Shown one piece after another: positions 5,020 to 63,912 of a stretch of 64,000 nucleotides of DNA. The stretch comes from an uncultured cyanobacterium (lineage in GTDB: Bacteria > Cyanobacteriota > Cyanobacteriia > Cyanobacteriales > Nostocaceae). A model generated the notes under the pieces. The model made no database searches. It was given only the letters and a program-made list of their open reading frames with translations, and was not told the DNA's origin. Numbering within the stretch: the stretch's first letter is position 1; each line of letters starts with the position of its first letter. The DNA lies in contig OY970166.1 in NCBI GenBank assembly GCA_963706595.1, positions 800,001 through 864,000 of the forward strand, in the 5' to 3' direction. Made by a program: the position numbers and the translations under genes.

Positions 5020-6096
5020 TCAAGGTTTAGCCAACCTCGATAAAACTATTGCTGCGTTTAAATCTCTGTCCATTGAATGCGCACAATTTTGGCAATTGTA
5101 AACTCTTTCTGAAAGTGGCATATCTTGAATATGTCCACAATTGGAACAGGTTTTGGTCGATGGAAACCAACGGTCAGCAATGATTATTTCACAACCAAAC
5201 TTCTTAGCTTTGTATTCTAGCTGACGCTTGAATTCATAAAATCCGCAATCAGCAATTACTTGAGCTAATTTATGATTGGATAGCATCCCTGAAACATTCA
5301 AATTCTCTACTACTATCTTTGCGTGGTTTTTGCATAAGTAAGTAGTGATTTGGTGAAGGGTGTTTTTTCTCAAGTTAGCTATCTTGGCATGGTGTCTAGC
5401 TAATGTAATTTTAGCTTTATACCTATTGTTGGAACCCTTGACCTTTCTGGCGAGTTTCCTAGAAAGTCTTTTAAGTTTTCTCAGGTTAGTTTTGTAGTGT
5501 TTGGGGTTAGGAAATACTACACCTGTAGAAAGAGTAGCTAATTCTTTTACCCCAATATCCACACCTACAACTTCATACTTTTTCAGGGTTGGTTCATGCT
5601 CTTGTTCATAAGCAAAGGCGATAAACCAACTGTCAGCAGTACGAGATATAGTGATTGATTTACAAGTGGTATGCGGTAAACCTTCGTAGGTCTTTATCCA
5701 TCCAATTGTAGGCAATTTTATCGACTTGCCACCTACAGGTATAGGTTTTCCACCTGCATCAATAGTGAAAGAATCATTGTGTCCTTTCTTTTTAAAGTTA
5801 GGATAATCACTCTTGGCACTAAAAAATCTAGAGAAAGCATCCCCCAAATTGTCAAAAGAATATTGAGTTATCTTTTGACAAATACCTTTTTCTTTAATCC
5901 AATCAAACTCTGGCTTTACATGATTGTTAAAGAACTTTTTTAATATGTATTTATTGGGCTTAAATCCATCTTCGTAAAGTTGTTTCCAAGTAGCAAGACC
6001 CCAATTGTAAGTAAACCTCGCTATTCCTGCGTGTTTACTCATGATTATCTCTTGATTCTTGGTTAGTTTCAACTTTGTTTTGATGGACAAAAGCAT
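5020..6096 (-). CDS. tnpB: RNA-guided endonuclease TnpB (IS607-type)
   Basis: N-terminal HAGIARFTYNWGL, RuvC-I GVDIG, RuvC-II VVENL, Zn finger CSNC...CQNC, RuvC-III DRDLNAA. Confidence 0.93.
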   Translation of the reverse strand: MLLSIKTKLKLTKNQEIIMSKHAGIARFTYNWGLATWKQLYEDGFKPNKYILKKFFNNHVKPEFDWIKEKGICQKITQYSFDNLGDAFSRFFSAKSDYPNFKKKGHNDSFTIDAGGKPIPVGGKSIKLPTIGWIKTYEGLPHTTCKSITISRTADSWFIAFAYEQEHEPTLKKYEVVGVDIGVKELATLSTGVVFPNPKHYKTNLRKLKRLSRKLARKVKGSNNRYKAKITLARHHAKIANLRKNTLHQITTYLCKNHAKIVVENLNVSGMLSNHKLAQVIADCGFYEFKRQLEYKAKKFGCEIIIADRWFPSTKTCSNCGHIQDMPLSERVYNCQNCAHSMDRDLNAAIVLSRLAKP

Positions 6097-26622: not shown

Positions 26623-27057
26623 GGGAGAGAGTAGGCGCAGGCGGTTGCAGGTCAGTCAGATTGACTGGTTTGAGGAAAGTCCGGGCTCCCGAAAGACCAA
26701 ACTTGCTGGATAACGCCCAGTGCGAGCGATCGTGAGGATAGTGCCACAGAAAGATACCGCCATTTTCAGTGAACAGTGAACAGTGAACAGTAAAAACCTG
26801 ATAACTGATAACTGATAACTGAGAATGGTAAGGGTGCAAAGGTGCGGTAAGAGCGCACCAGCACAACCGAGAGGTTGTGGCTCGGTAAACCCCGGTTGGG
26901 AGCAAGGCGATGGAGACTACGGTTGGTCTTTTACCAGTTTCCAAAAGTAGAGCCGCTAGAGGCGTTTGGTAACAAGCGTCCCAGATAGATAACTGCCCTC
27001 AATGGTGTTTTTAAACACTGGCGAGAACAGAACCCGGCTTATGTCCGACTCTCTCCC
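26623..27057 (+). ncRNA. rnpB: RNase P RNA (type A) with STRR insertion in P12
   Basis: GAGGAAAGTCCGGGCT, GGATAGTGCCACAGAAA, GGTGCGGTAAGAGCGCACC and AACAGAACCCGGCTTA motifs; terminal P1 pairing GGGAGAGAGT/ACTCTCTCCC. Confidence 0.97.
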
Positions 27058-38263: not shown

Positions 38264-38716
38264 TCACAACAAACCTTCCAATTTGCGCCGCATATTTTCT
38301 AATTCAGAATCAGACATTTCTGATGCAGCTGGTGGCACTTCGTTAGAGCGGTAGCTATCTTCATCAGTATCCTCCGCTTCGGCATCAGCTTGCCAGTCAG
38401 TATTTTCCAAGTTCATTTCTGGAGGTAAGATTAAATCGCTGTTGGCTGGAACAATTTCCCATTCATAGCCAGCACTTTCACAAAATCCCTTAATTTCCTC
38501 AGCATCGAGCATTTCCACTGTAGGCGTAGGGAAATCCTGAGCTTCCAGTAACAGGGCAAAGCGGAGAGCGTCGTCTTCTGACTCGAACATCAAAATTTTA
38601 TTGCGTACAGCCCCTGGCTGCGATGCTGAAGCATCAGCCACTCGAATTGAATGAATTCCCTCATTTTCTGTGTGAGCATTGAAAATTAGCACAAAAACAC
38701 GCATTGGTGTAATCAT
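38264..38716 (-). CDS. DUF3110 family protein
   Basis: VFVLIFNA..ENEGIH, LMFESEDDA.RFALLLEAQDFP, RRKLEGLL. Confidence 0.85.
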   Translation of the reverse strand: MITPMRVFVLIFNAHTENEGIHSIRVADASASQPGAVRNKILMFESEDDALRFALLLEAQDFPTPTVEMLDAEEIKGFCESAGYEWEIVPANSDLILPPEMNLENTDWQADAEAEDTDEDSYRSNEVPPAASEMSDSELENMRRKLEGLL

Positions 38717-38909
38717 CTGTCCTTTGGTTTTGCGATCTACTTATACTATTAAAGTCTGAGGCTGTGCAAAGAAGGAGAACAGATTGAAGAGGCAGGGGAG
38801 CAGGGTGCAGGGTGCAAGGGTGAGTAAGAAATTACTTTAAACTTCCGGTACTTAACAACCATTCCTCTTCTCCCCTGCGCCCTGCCCCTTTTCCTCTTCT
38901 TTGACCAAT

Positions 38910-39793
38910 ATTCTGGAAAAGTTAGGTGTTATATAGCAGTGTTGTTAGACTCCCGCCCGATCTACACTGGAGAAGATGATCCACAATTAAATTCCGAACG
39001 TCGTAAACCCCAATTGCCATTGCAATTTAGTGTGACAGCAAGAAGCCTCTCACTTAACACGATAGCGGAAGTGATGAGATGAATTGCGCGTGAATTGACG
39101 ACAGTCTCCCGACCAATGCGACAGCGAGGAAGGGAGACACGGAGGAAACGAGCAAAATATTTTAAATTTGGTATAATCGATTTGGTTGACTTCACCCATA
39201 TTGGTGTCTGATAAGCCTCTGTCCAATAGCATTACGATTATTGGTAAGCGACTCCGTTGCACAGCATAGAAGCAAGTAGGCACATCTTGATTAATACAGA
39301 TCACCTCCGGGTTTGTCCTATAGCGCGAATAAGCCAGCATCTCATCCAGGACAGTAAAATTTGTAGGGTACAAGGTAAGAAATTGCATAGTCTGCGGAGG
39401 GGCTTCTCGTGGACTTAAAACAAAGCTCAGTCAATGTCTTCATAGAAGAGTCGCTGAGAAGCCTACACTGTATGCTTGCATCAGTGTAGGAGTATGTCAC
39501 TGTGACAGCCCCTTTCATTCTGATTCGGTTTATTTCTCACCCAAATTTATCAACGAATCAGCCTTTTATGGAAGAGTGGGTGACACAAATTCAACAATGG
39601 TTACAGGCGGGAAAACGAATTTATTTCTTTGTTCATTGTCCTCTAGAAGAGCGATGATGCTCCGCCCCGCCTTTGGCGATCGCCTGGGACAGCGCGTTAC
39701 TTCCAAAAGCTATTGTCACAACATGGCACAGAAATTCCGCCTTTACCTGGGAATAATCTCGATTATCCTCCCAATCAATTGAGTTTATGGTAG
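38910..39793 (+). pseudogene. DUF72 family gene remnant (5' truncated, two insertions)
   Basis: LLDSRPIYTGEDDPQLNSERRKPQLPLQFSVT | APFILIRFISHP...RIYFFVHCPLEER | SPGTARYFQ...QLSLW* forms one frame after removing the two insertions. Confidence 0.85.
39037..39500 (+). mobile_element. non-coding element with IS200/IS605-type subterminal hairpins (PATE-like) and an internal promoter
   Basis: Left AGCAAGAAGCCTCTCACTT..AAGTGATGAG and right GAGAAGCCTACACTG..CAGTGTAGGAGTATGTCAC hairpins; interrupts the DUF72 frame; no tnpA or tnpB ORF. Confidence 0.78.
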
Positions 39794-40031
39794 TTTTGGC
39801 AAAATATCATTTCCTCTTGTTTCCAAAAGAGTGATAATGGTTATTACAATGATTTTGTGACCAAACTCGACACACTTCCCCCTGATCAAAAAAAGGGGCA
39901 ATACCCCTCTTTGCAAAAGTAGCAAGAGGTGAACTACAACACCTAAATTTCATTACCCAAAAATATTAAATTGTTGATGTGTAATTGAGGCGATTGTGGT
40001 GAAATCAGCAGTTATATTAAAGGAGGTTAAG

Positions 40032-53664: not shown

Positions 53665-53738
53665 CGGGATGTGGCGCAGCTTGGTAGCGCACTTCGTTCG
53701 GGACGAAGGGGCCGCTGGTTCGAATCCAGTCATCCCGA
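53665..53738 (+). tRNA. tRNA-Pro (CGG)
   Basis: Cloverleaf CGGGATG...CATCCCGA, anticodon arm CTTCG-TTCGGGA-CGAAG, T-loop GGTTCGAATCC; no encoded CCA. Confidence 0.96.
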
Positions 53739-63659: not shown

Positions 63660-63687
63660 AAAAACCCCGGCGAAACTAACCGAGGTT
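63660..63687 (-). terminator. putative terminator of psb34
   Basis: Minus strand AACCTCGG...CCGGGGTT followed by a T run. Confidence 0.55.
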
Positions 63688-63741
63688 GATAGGAGAAGTC
63701 CGAATGACGATGAGAAATACCGATACCGAAATCTATAAATA

Positions 63742-63912
63742 TTAGCTAACGCTCAAGGCTACCAAAACTAAAGTGGTGACGATTAATGTAGCAAATGCAC
63801 CTTGTACAGCATATTGACGTTGCTGCTCTTGGTTGGGGTAGCCAGCATAGTACATTTTAGGTTCGTTGGCGTAGTTATTTAAAATGCCTGCTTCGTTAAC
63901 GGTGGTATACAT
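63742..63912 (-). CDS. psb34: Ssl1498/Psb34 photosystem II assembly protein (56 aa, not in ORF track)
   Basis: MYTTVNEAGILNNYANEPKMYYAGYPNQEQQRQYAVQGAFATLIVTTLVLVALSVS*. Confidence 0.88.
   Translation of the reverse strand: MYTTVNEAGILNNYANEPKMYYAGYPNQEQQRQYAVQGAFATLIVTTLVLVALSVS

Follow-up and report, generated by a model that had tools for sequence, protein, structure and literature searches.

A gene-less IS200/IS605-type element in a Nostocaceae cyanobacterium with a conserved internal promoter-like box and a putative guide RNA for TnpB encoded elsewhere

The window analysed here is a stretch of 64,000 nucleotides from an uncultured cyanobacterium of the Nostocaceae (assembly GCA_963706595.1, contig OY970166.1, positions 800,001 to 864,000 of the forward strand). 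The feature under study is an insert of about 470 bp at 39031-39500 that contains no protein gene and interrupts a DUF72 reading frame. A preliminary description of the locus, made from the letters alone, had extended the element to 39520, but bases 39501-39520 belong to the host flank. The interruption itself was described correctly. It is visible when the window sequence from 38700 to 39900 is read together with the listing of open reading frames (ORFs): the last residues of the left piece are ...PLQFSVTA (...RKPQLPLQFSVTA), and the right piece opens with VTAPFILIRF. Searching same-genus genomes with the right flank gave uninterrupted orthologues in two of them, G001 and G005, which read ...CAATTTAG|TGTAACAGCCCC... 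and also ...CCATTGCAATTTAG|TGTAACAGCCCCTTTC... across the insertion point; the G001 protein is a Pfam DUF72 member (E 1.6e-56). The host-gene remnant lies on the plus strand at 38896..39790, with the left piece reaching to 39030 and the right piece starting at 39501; the pseudogene region as a whole was taken as 38760-39030 and 39501-39790. Apart from the insert, the remnant is a pseudogene with several lesions. The N-terminal ~190 codons are gone and unrelated sequence stands in their place, a 2-nt length difference and an in-frame stop are found near 38926-38938, and a second frame break is located near 39655.

The source genome (G000, 5.57 Mb in one contig) contains eight full-length copies of the element at different sites, so that it is not the single-copy sequence that the preliminary description had considered as a possibility. 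The copies are 99.8-100% identical (three at 100% and four at 99.79% over 476 nt, the window copy at 100% over 466 nt). Their flanks are unrelated except for the pentanucleotide TTTAG, which precedes every copy (39026..39030 in the window, plus strand) and also the full-length parent element described below. For the copy at G000:4977691 exact empty sites were found in G002 (...ccTTAG|tggtaggcg...) and in G001 (...tTTTAT|tggtaggcg...); empty sites in related genomes end with TTTAG, CTTAG or TTTAT at the insertion point. These exact empty sites define the canonical element as CTTAAACAGC...GGAGTATGTCAC, 471 nt long and inserted 3' of TTTAG without duplication, which is the signature of IS200/IS605 elements. 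By analogy with known members of this group TTTAG would also be the transposon-adjacent motif (TAM) recognised by TnpB. A search for the empty site of the copy at G000:2225616 was uninformative, its right flank being itself a high-copy repeat. This repeat (G000:C1:2226092-2226391; L004 1967-2266) has 86 matches in G000, many of them tandem-like units of ~110 nt, and is present in all 10 same-genus genomes. It may be the multi-copy noncoding RNA element associated with diversity-generating retroelements that is reported for N. spumigena CCY9414 (PMC3610870).

Both ends of the element carry imperfect subterminal hairpins, and terminal inverted repeats are lacking. The left end (39031..39154, plus strand) consists of the motif AGAAGCC at 39041-39047, a subterminal hairpin at ~39048-39078 and a second hairpin, GTCTCCC/GGGAGAC, at 39104-39138; judged by eye from the alignments, both hairpins are retained in relatives with compensatory changes. 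At the right end a second AGAAGCC (39457-39463) is followed by a hairpin whose 9-nt arms (39462-39470/39482-39490) are 100% complementary and in which 6 of 8 pairs covary; the element terminates with ...GGAGTATGTCAC at 39500. The related hairpins after AGAAGCC that had been reported beforehand are thus found at 39041-39078 and 39457-39490, and the sequence finishing the right end is as described. The distance from the hairpin foot to the element boundary is 17 nt on the left side and 10 nt on the right, a spacing that resembles that of IS608. From these sequence features the insert is classified as a gene-less, non-autonomous element of the IS605 group within IS200/IS605, of the type known as palindrome-associated transposable elements (PATEs). 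The assignment to IS200/IS605, already made at first sight, is borne out by the subterminal hairpins, by the insertion 3' of TTTAG without duplication and by ends common with a resident TnpA/TnpB element.

This resident element, here called the parent (L012, G000 C1:~4056075-4057925), is an intact IS605-type element and the single autonomous relative of the short element in the genome. It comprises 1851 nt with two genes and is preceded by TTTAG. A 160-aa ORF gives a full-length match to Pfam Y1_Tnp (E 2.5e-44); divergent to this tnpA gene lies an ORF of 408 aa with matches to HTH_OrfB_IS605, OrfB_IS605 (E 1.6e-23) and Cas12f1-like_TNB (E 1e-22). Divergent tnpA and tnpB genes are also found in IS605 of Helicobacter pylori. 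The parent TnpB aligns to ISDra2 TnpB (8h1j, E 7.8e-42; 8bf8, E ~8e-42) and has GIDVG, AVEKL and RDLNAA at the places expected for the RuvC motifs, as judged from the alignment shown to 9yyg, not ISDra2; which of these residues are the catalytic ones of RuvC is an assumption on our part. Some 20 tnpB-like and 3 tnpA-like loci are found in G000 as well, the closest TnpB paralogue being 63% identical. The left ends of the parent and of the short element are 97.7% identical over 130 nt. Their right ends agree to ~90% over a core of 48 nt, and a terminal part of ~80 nt is common to both, with the compensatory exchange of TCCTC/GAGGA for TCTTC/GAAGA and with another hairpin loop. The two elements thus have the TTTAG target, the left end (98%), the right-end tail GGAGTATGTCAC and, with compensatory changes, stems 2/3 (see below) in common, whereas they differ in size and coding content (1851 nt and two genes versus 471 nt and none), in the loop of the right-end hairpin and in stem 1. 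The parent TnpA presumably mobilises the gene-less element in trans, as the eight copies of at least 99.8% identity at distinct sites suggest.

The window copy deviates at its left junction. Seven of the eight copies start with CTTAAACAGC after TTTAG and read TTTAG|CTTAAACAGCAAG; only the window copy starts with TGTGACAGC and reads TTTAG|TGTGACAGCAAG, while the window right flank begins TGTGACAGCCCC. The aberrant first 9 nt (TGTGACAGC, 39031..39039, plus strand), which replace the canonical CTTAAACAGC, are identical to the right flank at 39501-39509, and the empty DUF72 site holds this 9-mer once. The junction is accordingly composed of the left flank, the first 9 nt of the right flank and the element from position 11 onwards, ACAGC being common to both. 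A 9-bp target duplication made by a transposase of another type was considered and rejected: the canonical copies show no duplication, and 5 of the 9 nt are the canonical left-end positions 6-10.

We then considered what the interior of the element could encode. As had been stated beforehand, it contains no tnpA, tnpB or iscB ORF: none of the insert ORFs has a Pfam match, and the translated frames of the insert show no similarity in G000 (best E 0.29). The interior could still be a decayed tnpB gene, as the preliminary description had allowed. Element positions 131-397 (window ~39155-39421) gave no blastn match to the parent at word sizes of 7-9. With a family profile (nhmmer, searched against G000) the 5' ~200 nt were found only in the eight copies and in one divergent copy at G000:4143361-4143619, whereas the 3' ~120 nt matched the right end of the 63% TnpB paralogue (E 1.5e-15), a solo remnant at 1504503-1504615 (E 2.6e-10) and the parent (E 7e-5). 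A covariance model of the 5' domain had no match at E<=10 in 18 tnpB 3' regions or in the parent. Only ~57 nt of the window (39389-39445) correspond to the 3' end of tnpB, namely to its last ~14 codons; upstream of ~39389 neither blastn nor nhmmer, the covariance model or the translated frames revealed a tnpB remnant, and a decayed tnpB interior was rejected.

An ORF of 112 aa on the opposite strand (39388-39050) might in principle encode a small protein, since the frame is uninterrupted in the window and 14 of 23 relatives have a similar open frame across the 5' domain. Against this, codon positions 1, 2 and 3 have taken similar numbers of substitutions (39, 35 and 31), every minus-strand frame is broken by stops in 9 of the 23 relatives, a conserved start codon is lacking and the ORF extends into the left end; a Pfam match is lacking and the best translated match in the genome has E 0.29. 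With no coding constraint and with stops in so many relatives we regard a gene at this place as hardly credible. The search for known RNA families, as proposed in the preliminary description, was done with Rfam (cmscan, 4227 families, E<=10 over 38900-39650 and gathering thresholds over the whole window) and returned nothing within the element. A group I intron or IStron was likewise discarded, as no relevant Rfam match was obtained over 38900-39650 at E<=10.

At 39169..39177 (plus strand) the interior contains the extended -10 promoter-like box TGGTATAAT, with the sequence given for it at the outset and with no recognisable -35 element. The box noted in the window is a conserved one: none of the specified letters of TGnTAnnAT (T, G, T, A, A and T) changes in any of the 29 aligned relatives, whereas the other positions and the upstream sequence vary. 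Its position and orientation relative to the right end are also the same in 29/29 relatives. A two-hexamer promoter/terminator scan of the region returned 0 sites, which is uninformative for a promoter without a -35 element. From the box, transcription would start at 39184 and give an RNA of ~317 nt up to the right end, close to the structured RNA of ~315 nt proposed beforehand.

Whether such an RNA would be structured was judged from a consensus fold of 23 relatives (RNAalifold), in which pairs were counted against column shuffles and slid controls. The fold comprises 86 pairs with 98% of the cells paired. Eighteen pairs are changed on both sides, compared with 7.2 +/- 1.6 in shuffled alignments (0 of 500 reach 18) and 0-7 in slid controls; the covariation whose absence had been considered is thus present. 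The pairings proposed from the single sequence fared differently. CCAATAG/TTATTGG, TGTCCT/AGGACA and CTCAG/CTGAG enclosing TCTTC/GAAGA are kept by compensatory changes, and GTCTCCC/GGGAGAC covaries by eye, but the long-range pairing CCTCCG/CGGAGG finds no support: relatives change one side only, and the consensus fold has local hairpins in its place. The mean pairwise identity among the 23 relatives is 89% in the 5' domain, 81% in the 3' part and 26% in the flanks.

The putative RNA falls into two domains. Its last 112 nt (39389..39500, plus strand), which coincide with the right end, are homologous to the omegaRNA scaffold of TnpB elements. When the family profile was compared with 18 tnpB 3'/right-end regions from 13 genomes (nhmmer), 17 of them matched at E 3e-20 to 1.7e-4 and the remaining one at 0.0025; in the matches shown, the alignment starts no earlier than profile position ~210 (GCGGTAGGGCATTCCGT) and extends to the end. 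In a joint alignment of 40 sequences, 23 gene-less and 17 tnpB-linked, pairing in the shared structure reaches 95.5%, and changes on both sides are seen in 15 of its 24 pairs, compared with 5.3 +/- 1.4 in shuffled alignments. The scaffold would consist of stem 1 (39389-39415), a single-stranded CTTAAAACAAAG linker, stems 2/3 (39426-39458), AGAAGCC (39457-39463), the right-end hairpin (39462-39490) and the tail AGTATGTCAC (39491-39500). A candidate pseudoknot of 4 bp, 94% paired, connects the stem-1 loop with tail positions -6 to -3. The pair types are AU in 31 sequences, GC in 3 and GU in 1, with 5 unpaired, and a change from AU to GC is seen in one pair. The scaffold of the window subfamily is a mosaic, with a stem 1 like that of the 63%-identity TnpB clade and stems 2/3 like those of the parent. 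By the omegaRNA paradigm the host DNA 3' of the right end (TGTGACAGCCCCTTTC, 39501..39516, plus strand) would serve as the guide segment.

The 5' domain of ~205 nt (39184..39388, plus strand) contains a covarying hairpin at 39223-39245 and a long branched hairpin at ~39287-39380, with covarying pairs in helices 4, 7 and 9. No homologue outside the element family was found with nhmmer, the covariance model, translated searches or Rfam (E<=10). The preliminary description had posed a choice between a guide RNA and an unclassified noncoding RNA cargo. Each alternative fits one part of the molecule: the 3' third is the homologue of an omegaRNA scaffold, and an unclassified RNA domain makes up the 5' two thirds. 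That the 5' domain might pair with 5' regions of the parent tnpA or tnpB mRNA was tried and rejected, the duplex energies being no better than those of shuffles (35/200 and 12/200, by a crude method). The segment CTGATAAGCCT plus hairpin at 39208-39245 resembles CTGAGAAGCCT plus hairpin at the right end (39454-39490; 10 of 11 nt identical) and also AAGAAGCCT plus hairpin at the left end; by this resemblance the first part of the 5' domain may have originated as a third transposon end.

Assembled contigs from RNA libraries of four metatranscriptome studies contain the module. A contig of 390 nt begins at 39196, follows the element with 0 mismatches to 39501 and continues with 84 nt of a different flank; others of 406 and 285 nt begin at 39170 and 39259, and one of 1647 nt (X8) covers 39126-39463 and then has a different left end. 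In three of the four studies the contigs begin inside the element, downstream of the left end, and cross the right end, and they extend past 39500 by 43-84 nt into other flanks. The module is thus present in RNA libraries of metatranscriptomes, rather than of this organism, which speaks against an element that is not transcribed, as had been considered, and the contigs cross the right-end boundary; where they begin argues only weakly for the proposed start site.

The family is not confined to the source genome. Among 60 relatives the interior was found at 81-99% identity in five other genomes; in one further relative, G002, only right-end matches were obtained. A scan with a 22-nt motif gave 32 loci in one-genome-per-species contigs and 7 further loci in metagenomes, some of which duplicate each other or loci from the related-genome search. 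The genome loci belong to Nostoc, Scytonema, Brasilonema, Anabaena, Dolichospermum, Nodularia, Calothrix, Pelatocladus, Desmonostoc and Microcoleus/Oscillatoriales. The model of the 5' domain had matches in 3 of 150 further sampled genomes of the order. With the parent proteins as tblastn queries (E<=1e-3), neither tnpA nor tnpB was found within 2.5 kb of any of the 32 genome loci or the 7 metagenome loci, so that in 39 of 39 loci the element, unlike the usual omegaRNA, neither overlaps nor adjoins a tnpB gene. In all six genomes with the RNA module there is a TnpB whose identity to the parent TnpB is 65% or more, whereas 20 of 55 genomes without the module have a TnpB that passes E<=1e-80; these genomes are related and are not independent samples.

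The constant part of the family is the unit from the promoter to the right end, to which at least two types of left end are joined. Stems 2/3 likewise occur in two types, mirroring two TnpB clades, and together these types indicate module shuffling. Several loci carry parts of the unit. The divergent copy in the source genome (G000:C1:4143361-4143619; L013 3362-3620) is a 73% relative in which the promoter box and the right end are present, the 5' domain is partly different and a left end cannot be recognised; its neighbours are a pseudouridine-synthase-like ORF and a large ORF, and it may be an immobilised copy. The solo remnant at G000:C1:1504503-1504615 (minus strand) consists of right end and scaffold with neither promoter nor 5' domain and stands directly after the end of a long ORF. 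At one locus of G028 (L019 1499-1721) a promoter and 5' domain of 88% identity, matched by the covariance model at E 1.9e-40, are located between glycosidase-like and rpoZ-like ORFs, and neither transposon end is present. GC-rich palindromic inserts occur in loops of the module in other genera, with 44 nt in L056/L063 and 24 nt in L067/L073 (helix-10 loop, stem-3 loop); they look like nested small dispersed repeats that the family tolerates.

The reading that we favour, with a probability of about 0.68, is that the insert is a PATE-type element that is mobilised in trans and makes its own omegaRNA for a TnpB encoded elsewhere in the genome. It takes up the first interpretation of the locus, a gene-less IS200/IS605 element with a promoter-like box and a structured RNA running to its right end, which our results support. 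From the observed anatomy, copy number, target site, common ends, scaffold homology, covariation, promoter-box conservation and co-occurrence we infer the following activities. The resident Y1 TnpA would bind the common subterminal hairpins and cut twice, at the left end 3' of TTTAG and at the right end after ...GTATGTCAC; the top strand would then be carried, as a circle of single-stranded DNA, to new TTTAG sites. From the internal extended -10 promoter the ~317-nt RNA would be transcribed rightwards across the right end into the flank. Its last ~112 nt would fold as the TnpB omegaRNA scaffold with stem 1, stems 2/3, the right-end hairpin and the terminal pseudoknot, and the next ~16 nt of host flank would be the guide. 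A resident TnpB could load this RNA and cleave the TTTAG-flank joint of the donor after excision or of an empty sister allele, and recombination would restore or copy the element. The ~205-nt 5' domain may be removed, like the 5' part of the ISDra2 precursor, or may help expression, stability or competition for TnpB.

The idea of omegaRNAs acting in trans is already in print. Meers et al. (2023; PMC10055086) report that PATEs of Geobacillus stearothermophilus often encode omegaRNAs needing TnpB in trans. Those PATEs and the present element have in common the lack of a protein gene, left and right ends common with TnpA/TnpB elements of the same genome, and a TnpA presumed to act in trans. What appears to be new in the sequence is the dedicated invariant promoter and the extra 5' domain; the window element carries a conserved internal extended -10 box and a 5' domain of ~205 nt that has no counterpart in tnpB-linked RNAs, which brings its total length to ~470 nt. 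In the literature, as far as its texts were available, no paper was found that describes this cyanobacterial family, an invariant promoter dedicated to such an RNA, or a large additional RNA domain exceeding the scaffold in conservation, and the extended-data figures of the PATE study may bear on the promoter. The available part of the differential RNA sequencing study of Nodularia spumigena CCY9414 (PMC3610870) makes no mention of the element. The ISDra2 omegaRNA, as described by Nakagawa et al. (2023; PMC10097598), has a functional scaffold of 116 nt whose positions -5 to -3 are paired with the stem-1 loop region; its precursor has a further 115 nt on the 5' side, which are cut off and dispensable. 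The two scaffolds agree, on that description, in lying directly upstream of the right-end boundary, in length (112 versus 116 nt), in having several stems including the right-end hairpin, and in the place of the pseudoknot, which in the present element is a candidate one. They differ in the target (TTTAG versus TTGAT) and in the upstream part, which here is a separate conserved RNA domain with its own promoter and not tnpB coding sequence. IStrons (Zedaveinyte et al.; 10.1101/2023.11.20.567912) are IS605/IS607 elements with a structured RNA besides the omegaRNA, and gene-less PATE forms of them exist; in contrast to these, the present element has no group I intron signature (Rfam, E<=10), and its extra RNA domain lies downstream of an internal promoter and not at the left end.

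Several observations weigh against an RNA that guides TnpB in trans. No Rfam family of omegaRNA type was matched, and by itself the single sequence folds with ordinary stability (z = -0.54), which 31 of 100 shuffles equal. The pseudoknot has only one covarying pair, and 3 of its 4 pairs are formed in the window subfamily, whose stem 1 moreover differs from that of the parent TnpB's own RNA. The altered left end of the window copy might impair further cleavage by TnpA. Assembled metatranscriptome contigs, in which DNA may be present, cannot show starts, ends or strand or rank the parts of the RNA; the contig X8 covers a left end and another contig starts at 39170 inside the -10 box. The conservation of the 5' domain above that of the scaffold (89% versus 81%) leaves a simple leader to be discarded without explanatory force, while two variants in G028 (C1:222998-223224 and 4065754-4066203; L125, L126), in which element positions 241-352 with the central branched hairpin are deleted or replaced by ~200 nt, show that the central part of this domain is not essential for persistence.

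The conservation of the 5' domain also speaks for a different view, in which the RNA is a cargo whose function resides in that domain, as a regulatory RNA, a processing ribozyme or a decoy, and is unrelated to TnpB guiding, the 3' part being kept as the right end that TnpA needs. Covarying helices are found in the 5' domain, it has no counterpart in the 18 tnpB-linked regions or the parent, and promoter plus 5' domain occur in other settings, at the G028 locus without transposon ends and at L013 in the source genome without a left end. However, TnpA, which binds the subterminal hairpin, is not known to require stem 1 or stems 2/3 of the scaffold, and these stems are nevertheless kept with compensatory changes in a family without proteins, the RNA always points to the right end, the G028 deletion variants retain the scaffold, and the module occurs only in genomes with a close TnpB; we consider a cargo of this kind unlikely. 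All features could instead act at the DNA level only, the hairpins in the single-stranded intermediate and the box as a protein-binding or incidental motif, with no functional RNA being made. IS200/IS605 elements do move as top-strand single-stranded DNA, and as G-U (G-T) pairs would form on the same top strand, covariation cannot separate RNA from top-strand DNA; nor do the RNA-library contigs provide a transcript start. That contigs of several studies cover the module, that the invariant positions are exactly those of an extended -10 element whereas spacer positions vary, and that the homologous region in TnpB-encoding relatives is the known omegaRNA-coding part nevertheless make an action at the DNA level alone quite improbable.

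A bolder proposal extends the reading of a trans-acting omegaRNA. The 5' domain would be a new functional RNA class on a protein-less transposon, which either favours the self-promoted guide RNA in capturing the TnpB of other elements, so that the element is a parasite of TnpA/TnpB elements, or processes itself to release a guide RNA of ~130 nt. The left junction of the window copy, with the first 9 nt of the right flank joined at ACAGC, would be the scar of a TnpB-guided cleavage of the empty allele followed by copying from the sister chromosome. As a hypothesis, this junction can be drawn as a microhomology-primed repair scar: the empty site would have been broken distal to TTTAG, where TnpB cuts, and the 3' end trimmed to ...TGTGACAGC would have primed on ACAGC of the element in the sister copy. 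An ordinary microhomology-mediated event is possible as the origin of the same junction. We hold the extended proposal as a whole to be speculative and rather doubtful.

Among the remaining features of the window, a DUF3110 ORF is located just upstream of the DUF72 remnant (38264-38716, minus strand). Above gathering thresholds Rfam identified RNase P RNA class A at 26628-27056 (plus strand) as well as a tRNA and the small RNA PsrR1, at 53665-53738 (plus strand) and 63660-63743 (minus strand). A tnpB-like locus at 5047-6090 (minus strand; G000:805047-806090, tblastn) has 30% identity to residues 20-391 of the resident TnpB and is unrelated to the element studied here.

TnpB guide RNAs have usually been studied as by-products of the tnpB transcript. 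In the family described here, which is widespread in Nostocales and some Oscillatoriales, the scaffold is split from the nuclease gene, stands under its own conserved promoter-like box and is fused to an RNA domain that is better conserved than the scaffold itself. Such elements would provide a natural test case for omegaRNAs working in trans, for the part of the RNA that TnpB really needs, and for gene-less elements competing for transposase and nuclease. They may also represent a compact, naturally trans-acting RNA design for a TnpB with a TTTAG-type motif, and should the 5' domain prove to be a processing or recruitment module, this would, if true, be new biology.

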